A DNA stretch of 64,000 nucleotides from an uncultured Candidatus Peribacteria bacterium. Its GTDB lineage: Bacteria > Patescibacteriota > Gracilibacteria > Peribacterales > Peribacteraceae. Shown here piece by piece: positions 14,841-46,399 of the stretch (positions are counted from its first letter, which is position 1; every line of letters starts with the position of its first letter). The position numbers were made by a program, and so were the translations under genes. The DNA lies in the NCBI GenBank assembly GCA_964534565.1, contig CAZHON010000001.1:36152-100151 (forward strand), written 5' to 3'. The notes beneath the pieces were generated by a model, which saw nothing but the letters and a program-made list of their open reading frames with translations, was not told the origin of the DNA and searched no databases.

Positions 14841-15171
14841 ATAAATGTCCTTTCTTGTCAGGGTGACAAGAAAGGACCAAAGAAACGCTCCGCCGCCTAT
14901 CGCCCCCAGTCCCGCCTTGTGTTTCGCTTTCGAACGCGTGGTCGGTTGCGCTCTCGAAAGCTCACAAGCTCGCTGCGGCTCGGCAAGGCTGCCCCTTCAC
15001 CCCCAAAGGCGGCGGGACACACTCCTTTGAGAAGAAACAAAAACAATACACAAAATCTCCGGACGGCATGCGCAAACGCCGGGGGTGGTGGGGCAGGCGG
15101 AGCGGGCACTCGTTTGCGCCGTATTTTCTTTCGCACTTTCTTTGTTACACGGACAAAGAAAGTGCATTCAA
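14841..15171. ncRNA. Modular structured element, copy 1 (candidate ncRNA or repeat family)
   Basis: The conserved blocks, stems and compensatory differences shared with 39804-40143 are itemised in the finding at 14841-15171. Confidence 0.6.
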
Positions 15172-15186
15172 CTCGGTTGAGGAATT

Positions 15187-15214
15187 AAAAAGAGCCCGAC
15201 AGTCGGGCTCTTTT
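15187..15214. terminator. Bidirectional intrinsic terminator
   Basis: AAAAAGAGCCCGAC-A-GTCGGGCTCTTTT, with an A-run on one side and a T-run on the other, between convergent genes. Confidence 0.7.
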
Positions 15215-27149: not shown

Positions 27150-27265
27150 TCAGGTTGAGTTGACGTAGCAAAAACGCTCTGTACTCTGTGGGCCCCTGCA
27201 GTCGGTGTTCGATTGTAATAGGGTCCCCCGGTTTTTCATTTCATCTACTCAAGGAGGTTCCAGCC

Positions 27266-27550
27266 ATGCTGGTCCTGTCACGGAAGAAGAACGAAAGTAT
27301 CGTGATCAACAACGACATCACTCTCGTCGTCGTCGAAATTCGCGGCGACAAAGTGAGACTCGGAGTTGAGGCACCCAAAGAGGTGCCCGTCCATCGACGC
27401 GAAGTCTACGAAGCAATTCAAAGGGCTCCCAAGCCCGATGATGACGAAGTGCCGAAGGAGACTCCTTCCACTCCTCCTGTGCGTCAGCACAATCCGCCGC
27501 CTCGAACCGATCGTGGTCGACGACGCGCAGACCGCAGAAAAGGAGCGTAG
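27266..27550 (+). CDS. csrA: Carbon storage regulator CsrA with a long basic, Pro-rich C-terminal tail
   Basis: MLVLSRKKNESIVINNDITLVVVEIRGDKVRLGVEAPKEVPVHRREVYE is canonical CsrA. It is one of the few genes here with a strong SD (AAGGAGG 8 nt upstream). Confidence 0.8.
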   Translation: MLVLSRKKNESIVINNDITLVVVEIRGDKVRLGVEAPKEVPVHRREVYEAIQRAPKPDDDEVPKETPSTPPVRQHNPPPRTDRGRRRADRRKGA

Positions 27551-35624: not shown

Positions 35625-35650
35625 AAGTTCTCGCTCCGCTCGAACTGACA
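35625..35650. repeat. 27-nt repeat family, variant copy C
   Basis: AAGTTCTCGCTCCGCTCGAACTGACA. Confidence 0.55.
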
Positions 35651-35711: not shown

Positions 35712-38700
35712 ATGGCCAAGAAGCCCGCAAAGAAAGTTGCCAAGAAGGCAACGAAACCAGCCAAGAAGGCTGCTCCAAAAAAAGTCGTCAAAAAGGCGGC
35801 TCCAAAAAAGTCCGCTCCAAAGAAGGTCGCCAAGAAAGTTGTGGTGAAGAAAGTGGCACCGAAAAAAGTAGAGAAGAAGGTTGCTCCTAAAAAGGCAGCG
35901 CCTGCTCCAAAGAAAGTTGAAGTGAAAAAAGTAGAGAAGAAGGCAGCTGCACCTGCCGCAAAGAAAGTGATGGTGGGAAAGAAGGAGATCATCACGAAGG
36001 CAACGAAGGGCCAGGTGAACATGGGACGCGGAAAGTACGAGATGGATGTTGGAGAGGAAATCCTCCCACGCTTGGTTCCACACATTCCTGCAGCGAACGG
36101 TCGCGTTCCTGCGGTGTTCAAGGATTTGCCTGCATACTTGCAGCCAAGCAAGATGGTGGAGAACCGCGTATTCCTCACAAATGATCAGGGAATTACGCAC
36201 GTGCCATCTCTCATCGAAATGCAGATCGAAAGCTACAAGTGGTTCCTGACCGACGGTCTCAAGGAACTTTTGGAAGAAGTGAGCCCAATCACAGACTTCT
36301 CCGGTCGCAAGATGGAACTCCGCATTCTCGGACACACCTTCGATCCACCAAAGTACGATCCCGACACATGCCGCCGCCGCAACCTCACGTTCGAGGCTGC
36401 CATGAAGGGATACGTTCAGTTGATCAACAAGGAGACGGGCGAAATCAAAGAACAGGATGTGTTCTTGGGTTCGATTCCACTCATGACCGAGCGCGGAACA
36501 TTCATCGTCGGAGGAATTGAGCGTGTCGTGGTGCACCAGTTGGTGCGCTCACCGGGTGTGTTCTTCTCCCCAATGACAGAATTCCCAAAGTACCACGCTG
36601 CAAAAATCATCCCAAAGCGCGGTGTGTGGTTGGAGGTTGAAACCGATCGCCGTGGTGTCATCACCTGCAAAATCGATCGCAAGCGCAAGATCCCTGTAAC
36701 GCAGTTGCTCCGTATTTTCGGATACACAACGGATGCAGATATCTTGGATTTGTTCAAAGACATCAAGTTCGAAGCTGATCACGATTTCATCCAGGTCACG
36801 CTCGATAAGGACACAGCTGCAACGGTTGAAGACGCTTACCAGAGCATCTACCGCCGCATCCGTCCGGGTGACTACGCCACGGCCGAGAATGCAAAGCAGC
36901 TCATCGACTCTCTCTTCTTCGATTTCAAGAAGTACGACATGGGAACGATCGCTCGCTACAAACTCAACCGCCGATTCGGTGTTGAGACTCCAAGCGACGA
37001 AGCACACCGCGTGTTCCAGGTGAAGGACTTCATCGAAATCATCCGCGAACTTATTCGCCTCAACAGCGGCGAAGGTGCAGCTGATGATATCGACCACTTG
37101 AGCAACCGCCGCGTTCGCTCCGTTGGAGAGTTGGTGCAGAACAAGTACCGCGTCGGTCTTGCTCGCACAGAGCGCATTGTGAAGGATCGTATGACGGTGA
37201 TGGATTTGGAAACGGTTACGCCGACTCAGCTCATCAACTGCCGCCCAATCACGGCTTCCATGCGCGAGTTCTACGCTTCGTCTCAGTTGTCCCAGTTCAT
37301 GGATCAGACGAACCCACTCTCCGAACTTGCTCACAAGCGTCGTCTCTCCGCAATGGGTCCAGGTGGACTCTCCCGCGAGCGCGCAAGCTTCGACGTTCGC
37401 GACGTGCACACAAGTCACTACGGACGCATCTGTCCTATTGCGACTCCAGAAGGACCGAACATCGGTCTCGTTGTGCACTTGGCCGGATTCGCTCGTGTGA
37501 ACCCCTACGGATTCCTCGAGACTCCGTACCAGGAAGTGAAGCACGAATTGCCACTCGATCCAGATAAGTTGGTGGGTCGCATGGTCGGTGAAGACATCAA
37601 GGATGGTCGCAAGATTTTCCTCAAAGAAGGTGAAGTGATTAAGACGAAGGACATCGCGAAGAAGCTCTGCAGCCTCTGCAAGGCAGAAGGATTGGTCACA
37701 GCGCCTGTGCGCGCATTCGTGACAGGAAAGACGATGTACATGGACGCCGAACAGGAGCGCCGCCTGGTGATCGCTCAGGCTCAGAAAGCCGATGCCTACA
37801 ATGAATTTGGAGAGTTCGTCTCGGACCGCGTGTCCGCTCGTCGCCGCAACGATCCCGTGCTCGCAAACGTGCAGGACGTGACGCACATCGACGTGTCTCC
37901 AAAGCAGATTCTCTCGATCTCCACATCCTTGATTCCATTCTTGGAGCACGACGACAACACCCGCGCATCCATGGGAACGAACATGCAACGTCAGTCCGTT
38001 CCGCTCATCCGCCCACAGGCTCCGCTCGTCGGAACGGGTATGGAGAGCATTGCAGCTCGCGCATCCGGTCACGCTCTTCTTGCGGAAGATGACGGTGAAG
38101 TGACGTCCGTCGACGCCGACGAAATCACGATCATCGAAAAGTCCGGTCGCAAGCAGACATACAAGCTCGAGACCTTCCTCCGTGGAAACCAGGGAACATG
38201 CTTCCACATGCGCCCAACGGTGCAGCGTGGAGACAAGGTACACAAGGGTCAGGCAATCGGAGATGGAACTGCGGTGCAGGATGGAGAATTGGCTCTTGGA
38301 CAAAACCTCCTCGTCGCCTACATGTCCTGGCAGGGATACAACTTCGAAGATGCCATCATCATCTCTGACCGTGCGGTTGAACGCGGTGACTTCGATTCGA
38401 TTCACATCGAGTCCTACATCACAGACGTGCGCGAAACCAAACTGGGTCCAGAGACTGTGACGCGCGATATCCCGAACGTCGGTGAAGCAAAACTGAAGGA
38501 CTTGGATGCAGACGGTATCGTCCGCATCGGAGCAACCGTTCACGAAGGCGACATCCTCGTCGGAAAGATCACCCCAAAGGGTGAAACCGAACTGACACCG
38601 GAAGAAAGGCTTCTGCAAGCCATCTTCGGAGACAAGGCGAAGGATGTGAAGGACAGCTCTCTCCGCCTCCCGGGTGGAGCAGGAGGAAAGATCGTCGGTG

Positions 38701-39746
38701 TGCATATCTTCGATCGCGCACAGGGTGATGAATTGCCAACAGGAGTCATGAAGCAGATCGAAGTCTTCGTCGCCCAGACCCGCAAGATGCAGGTTGGAGA
38801 CAAGATGGCCGGTCGCCACGGAAACAAGGGTGTCGTCGCTCGCATTGTTGCGAAGGAAGACATGCCATTCCTGGAGGATGGAACATCCGTCGATATCATT
38901 TTGAACCCACTCGGTGTGACGTCCCGTATGAACATCGGACAGATCCTCGAGACCCACCTTGGTTGGGCTTGTGGAGTGCTTGGCATCAAGATCGCCACAC
39001 CTCCATTGGACGGTATTTCCACCGATCAAATCGCTCAATTCCTCACAGCTGCCGGTCTTCCAGAAGATGGAAAGGTTCAGCTTCTCGATGGACGCACAGG
39101 GGAAAAATTCGCACACCGCACAACGGTTGGAATGGTGTACATGTTGAAACTTCTCCACTTGGTCGAAGACAAGATTCACGCTCGCTCCGTCGGTCCTTAC
39201 TCTCTCGTTACGCAGCAGCCACTCGGAGGAAAGGCACAGCACGGAGGACAGCGCTTTGGAGAAATGGAAGTGTGGGCACTCGAGGCGTACGGGGCTGCGT
39301 ACACGCTCCAGGAAATGCTTACGATCAAGTCCGACGATGTCATCGGTCGCGCAAAGGCCTACGAATCCATCGTGAAGGGCGAAACGATCGGACGCCCATC
39401 CATCCCTGAATCCTTCAACGTGTTGGTCAAAGAACTCCAGGCTCTTGGTCTCAAGGTCGATCTGCTCAAGTTCAAGGAAGAAGTCGCTCCAGCTGAGCGC
39501 TTGCTCGCTGACGAAGATGAGATCGAGAAGGTTGAACTCCAGAGCCGTGTTGATGCTGAAGAGGAGAGCGAAGAGTCCCTCATGCCACCATTGGAACAGA
39601 TCGCTGAGCTGACGGACGGCATGCTCGAAGAGGACGAGGAAGTCATTGCCGGCGTCGAAGAAGGCGCTGAAGTCGAAGCCTCCGGCGAAAGTCAGAAAGA
39701 CGAAATGGCAGACAGCGTCTCTGAGGAATCGATGAACGACGCCTAA
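35712..39746 (+). CDS. rpoB: DNA-directed RNA polymerase beta subunit with a ~95-aa Lys/Ala/Pro-rich N-terminal extension
   Basis: The RpoB core is recognisable from ~aa 130 (SLIEMQIESYKWFL) through RFGEMEVWALEAYGAAYTLQEMLT. The N-terminus is AKKPAKKVAKKATKPAKKAAPKK... repeats. Confidence 0.95.
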   Translation: MAKKPAKKVAKKATKPAKKAAPKKVVKKAAPKKSAPKKVAKKVVVKKVAPKKVEKKVAPKKAAPAPKKVEVKKVEKKAAAPAAKKVMVGKKEIITKATKGQVNMGRGKYEMDVGEEILPRLVPHIPAANGRVPAVFKDLPAYLQPSKMVENRVFLTNDQGITHVPSLIEMQIESYKWFLTDGLKELLEEVSPITDFSGRKMELRILGHTFDPPKYDPDTCRRRNLTFEAAMKGYVQLINKETGEIKEQDVFLGSIPLMTERGTFIVGGIERVVVHQLVRSPGVFFSPMTEFPKYHAAKIIPKRGVWLEVETDRRGVITCKIDRKRKIPVTQLLRIFGYTTDADILDLFKDIKFEADHDFIQVTLDKDTAATVEDAYQSIYRRIRPGDYATAENAKQLIDSLFFDFKKYDMGTIARYKLNRRFGVETPSDEAHRVFQVKDFIEIIRELIRLNSGEGAADDIDHLSNRRVRSVGELVQNKYRVGLARTERIVKDRMTVMDLETVTPTQLINCRPITASMREFYASSQLSQFMDQTNPLSELAHKRRLSAMGPGGLSRERASFDVRDVHTSHYGRICPIATPEGPNIGLVVHLAGFARVNPYGFLETPYQEVKHELPLDPDKLVGRMVGEDIKDGRKIFLKEGEVIKTKDIAKKLCSLCKAEGLVTAPVRAFVTGKTMYMDAEQERRLVIAQAQKADAYNEFGEFVSDRVSARRRNDPVLANVQDVTHIDVSPKQILSISTSLIPFLEHDDNTRASMGTNMQRQSVPLIRPQAPLVGTGMESIAARASGHALLAEDDGEVTSVDADEITIIEKSGRKQTYKLETFLRGNQGTCFHMRPTVQRGDKVHKGQAIGDGTAVQDGELALGQNLLVAYMSWQGYNFEDAIIISDRAVERGDFDSIHIESYITDVRETKLGPETVTRDIPNVGEAKLKDLDADGIVRIGATVHEGDILVGKITPKGETELTPEERLLQAIFGDKAKDVKDSSLRLPGGAGGKIVGVHIFDRAQGDELPTGVMKQIEVFVAQTRKMQVGDKMAGRHGNKGVVARIVAKEDMPFLEDGTSVDIILNPLGVTSRMNIGQILETHLGWACGVLGIKIATPPLDGISTDQIAQFLTAAGLPEDGKVQLLDGRTGEKFAHRTTVGMVYMLKLLHLVEDKIHARSVGPYSLVTQQPLGGKAQHGGQRFGEMEVWALEAYGAAYTLQEMLTIKSDDVIGRAKAYESIVKGETIGRPSIPESFNVLVKELQALGLKVDLLKFKEEVAPAERLLADEDEIEKVELQSRVDAEEESEESLMPPLEQIAELTDGMLEEDEEVIAGVEEGAEVEASGESQKDEMADSVSEESMNDA

Positions 39747-39766
39747 TAGGTTCAAAACCAGCGTTC

Positions 39767-39796
39767 AAAACGGGTCCCGAAAAGGGGCCCGTTTTT
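39767..39796 (+). terminator. Intrinsic terminator of rpoB
   Basis: AAAACGGGTCCC-GAAAA-GGGGCCCGTTTTT. Confidence 0.8.
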
Positions 39797-39803
39797 GTAA
39801 TTC

Positions 39804-40143
39804 ATAAATTGTTCTTTCTTGTCAGGGCGACAAGAAAGAACGAAAGAAACGCTCCGCCGCCTATCGCTCCTCCACATCGCCCCGGGTCTCCTGTTTTCGC
39901 CTTCCAAGGCTTCAGGCGAAAACACTCGACGCGCTCGCTTCGCTCGTCGGGGCTGCCCCTTCACCCCCAAAGGCGGCGGGACACACTCCTTTAAAGAAGA
40001 AACCTGGATTCGTAACTTGGAAGTAATAGTGAGATCCGTCGACGCACCGCGGAACAGTGGGCGGGCAAGTGGAGTGTGGCGATTGCGTCGACCGCATTTT
40101 CTTCGTCCATTCTTTGTTGCACGGACAAAGAATGGACATTGAA
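39804..40143. ncRNA. Modular structured element, copy 2
   Basis: It has the same conserved blocks and stem positions as 14841-15171, with different stem sequences (GTTTTCGCCT/AGGCGAAAAC, CCCCG/CGGGG, GTCGACGC/GCGTCGAC, GTCCATTCTTTGT/ACAAAGAATGGAC). Confidence 0.6.
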
Positions 40144-40158
40144 GAATGAAATAGATCT

Positions 40159-41727: not shown

Positions 41728-41879
41728 AGGCCCATCCTACCAGGCTTGTTCCATATTCCGTGAGAACCACGGAACACCGCATCCGATTGAGCCTTAGAAA
41801 GGAAGACGCCTCCGAAGCGGCAACGGAAGCACTCGTCGATTCCTACGATGGGTCCGTTCATTTCTTTCCCCATTTTTTT

Positions 41880-42263
41880 ATGCGATCTGTGAACAAGATC
41901 ATGTTGCTCGGAAACGTCACGCACGATGCCGAGTTGAAGAATACGACTGGAGGCCAGTCCGTTTGTACATTCGGTCTTGCGACCGACCGCTCCTGGAAAG
42001 ACCAGAGTGGCGAGCGCAAGAAACAGACCGAGTTCCATCACCTGGTCACCTGGGGTGGCCTTGCGGAGGTGTGTGGAAAGTCGGTGAAGAAAGGCAGTCC
42101 CTTGTACGTGGAGGGATACCTCAAGACCAACAGTTGGGAGAACAAGGAAAAGAAGAAGCAGCAGCGTACGGAGGTGATTGTGGAGAATCTGGTGTTCTTA
42201 GCTCCTAAAGCAGGTGCAGACGAGCAGGCGAATGATCACGTGGATGAGGTCGTGGCCGCCTAA
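41880..42263 (+). CDS. ssb: Single-stranded DNA-binding protein
   Basis: MRSVNKIMLLGNVTHDAELKNTTGGQSVCTFGLATDRSWKD....TEFHHLVTWGGLAE is an OB-fold SSB. The C-terminus lacks the usual DDDIPF tip. Confidence 0.85.
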   Translation: MRSVNKIMLLGNVTHDAELKNTTGGQSVCTFGLATDRSWKDQSGERKKQTEFHHLVTWGGLAEVCGKSVKKGSPLYVEGYLKTNSWENKEKKKQQRTEVIVENLVFLAPKAGADEQANDHVDEVVAA

Positions 42264-42640: not shown

Positions 42641-46139
<3,499 letters not shown>

Positions 46140-46281: not shown

Positions 46282-46399
46282 GTCCTGGTGCTACGAGCGG
46301 AGGGGTCACACCCGATCCCATATCGAACTCGGCAGTTAAGCCCTCCAGCGCCGATGGTAGTGGTCCATTTGGGCCGCAAGAGTAGGCCAGTGCCAGGAC
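46282..46399 (+). rRNA. rrf: 5S ribosomal RNA
   Basis: GTCCTGGTGCTACGAGCGGAGGGGTCACACCCGATCCCATATCGAACTCGGCAGTTAAGCCCTCCAGCGCCGATGGTAGT...CCAGTGCCAGGAC, with terminal helix GTCCTGG/CCAGGAC. Confidence 0.9.

Follow-up and report, generated by a model that had tools for sequence, protein, structure and literature searches.

Two elements of about 330 nt in the window (the 64,000-nt stretch of DNA analysed here) are best read as members of a new family of structured intergenic repeats of the Peribacteraceae, REP/BIME- and BOX-like in kind and situated in 3' UTRs, a reading in which we place about even confidence. Each element is an inverted pair of units, in which a full unit forms the left arm, a truncated unit forms the right arm, and the hairpins of both point outward. 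The reading as a repeat of the REP/BOX/ERIC type follows from the dispersal of the units, their occurrence in both orientations, the inverted doublets and the truncated copies, as well as from the homogeneity within a genome, the quick turnover of loci, the lack of room for a promoter, and stems that are strand-symmetric and Watson–Crick only. It is further supported by the lack of a transposase in the window and of a conserved ORF in the element, and by the presence or absence of units among close relatives. The initial annotation had left the choice between a new structured RNA and a new repeat family; a new repeat family is supported, with negative Rfam searches and related units in four other Peribacteraceae genomes.

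By its RpoB homologues the host belongs to the Peribacteraceae (Peregrinibacteria, CPR), and the nearest RpoB in the databases is 84% identical by BLASTP, or 87% over well-aligned columns. Two copies of the element are visible in the source genome, within 64 kb of a 695,617-bp contig. Both were found on the + strand with the common architecture that had been described for them (Table 1). Their placement in convergent gaps was confirmed from the gene neighbours: copy 1 is flanked by a Peptidase_C39_2 gene (+) and a 314-codon ORF that converges on it, and copy 2 by the rpoB terminator and a convergent TPR gene, whose stop codon it adjoins. The remaining genes of the window are of the housekeeping kind (ribosomal proteins, aaRS, rnpA, yidC, csrA, ssb, 23S-5S).

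The conserved blocks that had been listed for the two copies are all present and exceed chance. Block B, a 42-mer (GGCTGCCCC...CTCCTTT), is identical at 14987-15028 and 39951-39992, as is block A, a 25-mer (AAAGAAACGCTCCGCCGCCTATCGC), at 14879 and 39843; neither has a further occurrence in the 64-kb window, and neither arose in 100 shuffles. Segment identities between the copies form two classes, namely 81-100% for the 5' hairpin with block A (91%), block B (100%) and block C with the 3' hairpin (81%), against 43-60% for the V1 segment (60%, gapped), the linker (43%) and the stem-2 domain (58%). That the blocks are identical within one genome while the neighbouring V domains are almost randomised is more than a simple recent duplication can account for. 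Logan short-read contigs (SRR14271359, SRR14271372) come from this organism; they match the window exactly and bring in no strain variation. Two of these contigs (L003 and L004) end at window position 15016, where a 31-mer first lies wholly inside the common 42-nt block, and another (L007) begins at 40117, within the 3' hairpin of copy 2. The practical effect is that short-read assemblies of such genomes break at the common block.

Table 1. Window coordinates of the two elements, their component features and the adjoining terminator hairpins. CM R1 is the covariance model seeded with the two left arms; L008, L009 and L013 are related Peribacteraceae genomes.
Feature	Position	Strand	Remarks
Copy 1	14841-15171	+	Sequence inspection
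Copy 1, left arm (full unit, C-rich orientation)	14841..15035	+	Aligns with L013, L008 and L009 units
Copy 1, left terminal hairpin	14847..14877		GTCCTTTCTTGTC-AGGGT-GACAAGAAAGGAC, 13-14 bp, perfect
Copy 1, helix P1	14890..15015	+	CCGCCGCCT (14890-14898) with AGGCGGCGG (15007-15015)
Copy 1, closing stem	14914-14919/14984-14989		Inside P1
Copy 1, V1 inner stem	14926-14933/14954-14961		Inside P1
Copy 1, 13-mer	14992-15004		CCCCTTCACCCCC, inside P1
Copy 1, A/T-rich linker	15036..15059		Between inverted units
Copy 1, right arm (truncated unit, G-rich orientation)	15060..15175	+	CM R1 on - strand; nhmmer
Copy 1, stem 2	15070-15078/15111-15119		Right arm
Copy 1, decayed G motif	15081-15093		GGGGGTGGTGGGG, right arm
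Copy 1, T-tract	15124-15132		TTTTCTTTC, right arm
Copy 1, right-arm hairpin	15133-15165
Bidirectional terminator-like hairpin	15188..15214		AAAAGAGCCCGACAGTCGGGCTCTTTT, directly 3' of copy 1, outside element
rpoB intrinsic terminator	39766..39797	+	AAAACGGGTCCCGAAAAGGGGCCCGTTTTTG, directly 5' of copy 2, outside element
Copy 2	39804-40143	+	Sequence inspection
Copy 2, left arm (full unit, C-rich orientation)	39805..39999	+	Aligns with units of relatives
Copy 2, left hairpin	39811-39841
Copy 2, helix P1	39854-39862/39971-39979
Copy 2, V1 inner stem	39893-39902/39914-39923
Copy 2, C-rich 13-mer	39956-39968
Copy 2, A/T-rich linker	40000..40029
Copy 2, right arm (truncated unit, G-rich orientation)	40030..40147	+	CM R1 on - strand
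Copy 2, stem 2	40038-40045/40085-40092
Copy 2, T-tract	40097-40104
Copy 2, right-arm hairpin	40105-40137

Each copy had originally been taken for one RNA fold of ~330 nt, a view that has to be given up: the left arm is one unit, and the covariance model of that unit also finds the right arm, read on the opposite strand. The model (CM R1) was seeded solely with the two left arms of the window, so that its matches to these arms are by construction. Elsewhere it recovers units in three relatives (L013, 58 bits; L008, 38 bits; L009, 34 bits), and it matches the right arms of the window on the - strand (copy 2, 30.9 bits, E 9e-7; copy 1, 27.7 bits, E 6e-6). A unit profile built separately (nhmmer) also recovers units, the right arm of copy 1 at E 1e-15 to 2e-20. 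Further, the left arm, when reverse-complemented, aligns with single units of L013, L008 and L009, and in this orientation it is matched over the hairpin, block A, V1 and block B by the L013 element at rpoB/TPR, which is only ~190 nt long. As the right arm is an opposite-strand unit and the relatives L013 and L009 have single units, a single RNA architecture of ~330 nt is unsupported. To the two inverted pairs of the window, L008 adds a third. Terminal inverted repeats, a feature that the initial annotation had suggested looking for, are present, with the ends T(A/G)AATG, hairpin and AAAGAAA mirrored in both copies. The flanks hold imperfect A/T-rich similarities only (GAATAAAT / GAATTAAA; TCATAAAT / GAATGAAAT); no convincing target-site duplication was found at either window element, and no clean pair of filled and empty sites was seen.

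The unit itself is ~150-195 nt long and has three modules, of which only the terminal hairpin (29-33 nt) is REP-sized. This hairpin is perfect over 11-14 bp and has the core CTTTCTT(T)G/C(A)AAGAAAG or CACTTTTG/CAAAAGTG. In the C-rich orientation it is followed by an A-rich linker, AAAGAAA, and by helix P1 (CGCCGCC/GGCGGCG), which encloses a variable stem-loop domain of 60-85 nt. Directly 5' of the 3' strand of P1, in all five full units, lies a single-stranded 13-mer that is identical in four of them and carries one change in L009 (CCGCTTCACCCCC). The left arm of copy 1 accordingly reads hairpin, AAAGAAA, P1, V1, C-rich 13-mer, P1 3' strand and tail. Read in the G-rich orientation, every unit shows UUU(U)CUUU(C) between a GC helix (P1 or stem 2), from which 4 nt separate it, and the hairpin. 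The outer stem of the right hairpin of copy 2, GTCCAT/ATGGAC, matches the L013 unit hairpin at the same rpoB/TPR site. At 1660-1850 of L009, the whole unit, with its hairpin, lies between the halves of a perfect outer inverted repeat of 18 bp (GGAGGGGGGCGCGCCGCC / GGCGGCGCGCCCCCCTCC), and the 3' strand of P1 therefore has two alternative partners. The window elements offer a like alternative, in that both block B and the right arm are possible partners of block A.

All twelve halves of the stems listed initially lie at the positions assigned to them and are fully Watson–Crick complementary, and the proposed long-range pairing of 14890 with 15007 proved to be helix P1, which covaries among units. 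The description of the variable stems as unrelated sequence did not survive, since the V1 arms are homologous and two compensatory pairs apart (GCTTTCGA/TCGAAAGC in copy 1, GTTTTCGC../..GCGAAAAC in copy 2). The longest perfect stems of four variable segments are longer than in dinucleotide shuffles, with p = 0.064, 0.001, 0.013 and 0.005, and the MFE of the GC-rich variable segments taken alone is unexceptional (z -0.2 to -2.7). Whole-element folding gives z = -6.6 and -6.2; these strongly negative scores, together with most of the long-range pairings, stem from the inverted duplication of units. The two strands of the element fold about equally well.

Covariation was assessed in a CM-guided alignment of five full units from four genomes, and because this alignment is fitted to the CM, the counts lean towards the model. 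With this reading in mind, 98.2% of cells pair, against only 43-58% in slid controls, and 15 of the 22 helix pairs (hairpin and P1) show double-sided changes. The helices contain 23 double changes and no one-sided (wobble) change. Likewise, neither a G-T pair nor a mismatch occurs in the 116 bp of nine hairpins read directly from the sequence. The proposal of a covarying functional RNA fold stands in part: the covariation is real, but the pairing is Watson–Crick only, with no G-U, and is not RNA-specific. Pairing that is symmetric between strands would fit a DNA-level or two-strand constraint as well as it fits RNA. Template-switch correction of quasi-palindromes is a known mutational process, and the perfect palindromes could be kept either by selection for pairing on both strands or by such correction.

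The family was surveyed over about 205 kb from nine genomes, in which nine units were found at six loci. Besides the host, four Peribacteraceae genomes (L013, L008, L009 and L018) carry related units. The L013 unit (RpoB 82% identical) lies 3' of rpoB/TPR, at the site orthologous to that of copy 2, and L008 has an inverted pair between a 98-codon ORF and ssb. A single unit in L009 and a rearranged partial unit in L018 both lie 3' of cysS; the window contributes the loci 3' of the C39 gene and 3' of rpoB/TPR. All six loci are in convergent or co-directional gaps near stop codons or terminators, none is divergent, and units are found in either orientation relative to the neighbouring genes. At the rpoB 3' site, no unit was found in L009, L010-12, L014, L015/16, L017 or L018. 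The cysS-3' elements of L009 and L018, whose RpoB proteins are 92% identical, have only a 13-nt GC string in common. Blocks are 91-100% identical within the host genome and, by eye, roughly 60-80% identical to those of the L013 orthologous-site and L008 units; by this comparison, intragenomic copies are evidently much more alike in their blocks than same-locus copies in different genomes. The family is accordingly old, its motif and architecture being kept across RpoB identities of 82-87%, while its individual loci turn over quickly.

Several other features were observed in these regions. In L015 and L017, the closest relatives of L013 (RpoB 91-92% identical), the rpoB 3' site carries a different GC-rich palindromic repeat (CCCCTCTCCC...GGGAGAGGGG; GGGGTTGGGGAT.GGGGGT.AAAG; L015 1293-1360 and 14042-14109, L017 14023-14112), which is also found in L015 at the 3' end of an SLH-protein gene. 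In Peribacteraceae, structured repeats appear to have hot spots in such gaps. Between cysS and the gene for a large SLH-domain protein, the window encodes a 120-aa CsrA homologue (27188-27550); in L009 and L018 the repeat unit is directly downstream of cysS, and no csrA was called between cysS and the SLH-protein gene. The rpoB gene of the window (35712-39746) is without rpoC after it and has an N-terminal Lys-rich repeat extension (AAGAAG-type repeats of 27-39 nt, 35763-35948), and similar repeats occur in relatives too (L008 10028-10165, L009 10006-10152). The 23S gene (42643-46139) measures 3497 nt against a 2925-nt model, which implies about 570 nt of insertions, for which the Rfam search at gathering thresholds reported neither a group I intron nor another family; the 5S gene lies at 46284-46398. 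Directly before 23S stands ssb (41760-42263), and as there is no 16S gene upstream, the rRNA genes are unlinked. Finally, a 23-nt sequence, TTCTCGCTCCGCTCGAA(G/C)TGACA, occurs with 96% identity at 289-311, beside a tRNA cluster (370-620), and at 35628-35650, 60-85 nt upstream of the rpoB start, and could be a common promoter or regulatory motif.

Searches against known families were negative. With Rfam 15 at gathering thresholds, only 23S, 5S and three tRNAs were found in the whole window, and at E<=1-10 the two copies and the L013 and L008 units gave sub-threshold chance matches only, in agreement with the initial failure to assign the element to a known RNA family. The element had no blastn match in plasmid and phage collections. 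An exact 20-mer from the core of block B (CACCCCCAAAGGCGGCGGGA) returned four chance matches with dissimilar flanks from GTDB species genomes, JGI metagenomes and IMG/VR, and a degenerate motif scan of IMG/VR returned none; this core is lineage-specific. No transposase or recombinase domain (including Y1_Tnp, OrfB, TnpA and TnpB) was detected in the window proteins, and transposases are absent from the Pfam labels of genes called in the relatives' loci. Subterminal hairpins are present, and no fixed flanking tetranucleotide was definable. No conserved promoter was found, and the units abut terminators or stop codons, which leaves no promoter room. Terminator-like features are weak: the gap between helix and U-tract is 4 nt, and a terminator consensus scan gave 1-2 sites per region, not above shuffles. 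A few specific candidates were also rejected. DGR-type diversification of V1 does not fit, as the differences involve all four bases; a CsrA sponge was set aside, as the GGA motifs looked, by eye, no commoner than base composition predicts and did not appear to be placed in loops. An RNase P-like similarity of GGGGGUGAAGGGG was rejected, as the other conserved regions were not seen and the element is multi-copy, and so was an independent sRNA gene with a promoter of its own, as no conserved one was found. The Peribacteria genome paper (PMC4736985) and full-text literature searches yielded no account of such dispersed structured repeats in CPR.

The 61-codon ORF pointed out at the start (14845-15030 and 39809-39994) can be read in both copies, but the evidence does not support it as a gene, and it is highly improbable that a small Arg/Pro-rich peptide encoded by it is itself the selected feature. 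The ORF is of equal length in both copies with its stop preserved (TGA/TAA), and in each of the five full units this frame runs through the 13-mer unbroken. However, stops are likewise absent from a second frame of the C-rich strand, so that the openness is compositional. From genome to genome, conservation is lacking for the start, the stop and the reading frame over P1, and the peptide hypothesis was rejected. Further, there is no Shine-Dalgarno sequence, one copy has a TTG start, the start sits at the foot of the 13-bp hairpin, and hairpin covariation alters amino acids. Eight element ORFs (both copies, both strands), used as a chimeric query, had no match in 5.8e9 proteins at E<=10, and a search of 1.84e9 representatives with a profile made from the two 61-aa ORFs gave one spurious match, to an unrelated repeat protein. 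The element has no coding potential.

Two alternatives on the level of the nucleic acid deserve more weight. A purely selfish repeat does not explain the conserved 13-mer, which, kept beside two covarying helices across RpoB identities of 82-87%, indicates purifying selection on a function. The 13-mer and the identical blocks beside the V domains are the reasons why a functional RNA, or a DNA structure recognised by a protein or recombinase, stays a serious alternative. It is possible, and we hold it tentatively, that the unit is a true structured ncRNA family, either derived from 3' UTRs or acting in cis as a regulatory RNA. The hairpin and P1 would then serve as scaffold for the C-rich 13-mer (CCCCUUCACCCCC), which would act as a single-stranded seed or a protein-binding site, while the variable domain is free to change as long as it still pairs and paralogues keep their functional blocks identical. 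The covariation of both helices, the near invariance of the 13-mer, and V domains that diverge yet keep their stems agree with this, as does the unit that L013 retains at its orthologous rpoB/TPR site; such an ncRNA family would be new, as no known family matches. Against it stand 116 bp of hairpin free of G-U, helices free of one-sided changes, and two strands that fold about equally well. The units also occur as inverted pairs and in both orientations relative to incoming transcription, they lack promoter room, a conserved promoter and a canonical terminator, and they are turned over and rearranged quickly at 92% RpoB identity, with several relatives having no element at the orthologous site.

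Strict Watson–Crick pairing is what would be expected of a structure that forms in DNA, and the units might be non-autonomous substrates or remnants of ssDNA transposition of the HUH/Y1 type, comparable to REP-RAYT or to the IS200/IS605-derived PATEs, although we regard this as improbable. A transposase encoded elsewhere in the genome would recognise the perfect hairpin and an adjacent conserved single-stranded motif. The perfect hairpins are indeed terminal or subterminal, with a conserved core and covarying outer pairs, the inverted doublets resemble REPINs or BIMEs, a clear target-site duplication is lacking, and the location is extragenic at gene 3' ends. Yet neither the window proteins nor the relatives' Pfam labels include a Y1_Tnp, OrfB or other transposase, no conserved cleavage tetranucleotide is definable, and there is no phage or plasmid similarity. 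The unit is also far longer and more complex than a REP, and a P1 that spans ~110 nt is unusual for ssDNA recognition. A broader proposal, which is possible and which we hold as tentatively as that of the ncRNA family, is that the ~180-nt unit represents a new functional class of nucleic acid confined to the Peribacteraceae. It would be either a structured regulatory RNA that displays the 13-mer between the covarying hairpin and the covarying GC helix, or a folded-DNA substrate for a recombinase not yet recognised, and in both cases the inverted pairing would be part of its action.

Under the preferred reading of a lineage-specific structured repeat, the unit would be a non-coding element that moves among gene 3' ends by duplication, inversion and recombination, and recent spread or gene conversion would keep units uniform within a genome. 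Transcription would carry the unit into 3' UTRs along with the gene, and there the GC helix, U-tract and hairpin may end the incoming transcript or protect its 3' end. The long-range pairings are created by a full unit facing a truncated one with the hairpins outward.

Among known systems, the elements recall REP/BIME/REPIN sequences of Proteobacteria. Both are extragenic palindromes at gene 3' ends, often arranged as inverted doublets with a linker, in which compensatory changes conserve the hairpin; both are homogeneous within a genome and divergent between genomes, and co-transcription with the upstream gene, as known for REP, would apply here as well. In location, all six loci are extragenic at gene 3' ends, and three are inverted pairs with the hairpins outward. 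In size, a REP is an imperfect palindrome of about 20-40 nt with a conserved 5' tetranucleotide, whereas the unit has 150-195 nt. REP/BIME sequences come in tens to hundreds of copies per genome and with a cognate RAYT (Y1 transposase) gene. Unlike them, the Peribacteraceae unit has a long-range GC helix, a variable internal domain, a conserved internal 13-mer and a CPR host, and the window showed no RAYT gene. BOX elements of Streptococcus pneumoniae (boxA-boxB-boxC) are likewise mosaics of highly conserved and variable modules, with complementary end modules that let the whole element fold into a long and stable structure, and they are intergenic, non-coding and without a transposase of their own. 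The variable part of the Peribacteraceae unit, however, is a diverging stem-loop domain rather than a tandemly iterated module, and an inverted pair of like units replaces the A-B-C order; the comparison is one of architecture, as a sequence relation is not expected.

MITEs of the Correia/ERIC type share the length of about 330 nt, terminal inverted repeats of ~45 nt (hairpin and AAAGAAA), high folding stability and an intergenic position near terminators. They differ in that the Peribacteraceae half-units exist singly, the internal motif is more conserved than the termini, no target-site duplication is convincing, and no related autonomous IS was found in the window or in the plasmid and phage collections. 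Finally, paralogous sRNA families such as Qrr, and RsaE/RoxS with their C-rich seed, resemble the units in having a conserved single-stranded block within divergent sequence that keeps its structure, and in the RsaE/RoxS type this block is C-rich as it is here. In contrast to these sRNAs, the units, known here from sequence alone, have no evident promoter or terminator, occur in both orientations, contain no G-U pairs and show no Rfam similarity. On the best reading, the family is previously undescribed, and its general kind, a structured repeat like REP/BIME or BOX, is already known.

CPR bacteria have tiny, streamlined genomes, and to our knowledge almost nothing is known of their non-coding DNA. 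The repeat family offers a handle on transcript termination and stability, on genome rearrangement and possibly on an unrecognised mobilisation system in CPR bacteria. Should the RNA reading be true, the units would constitute a new CPR-specific RNA family.
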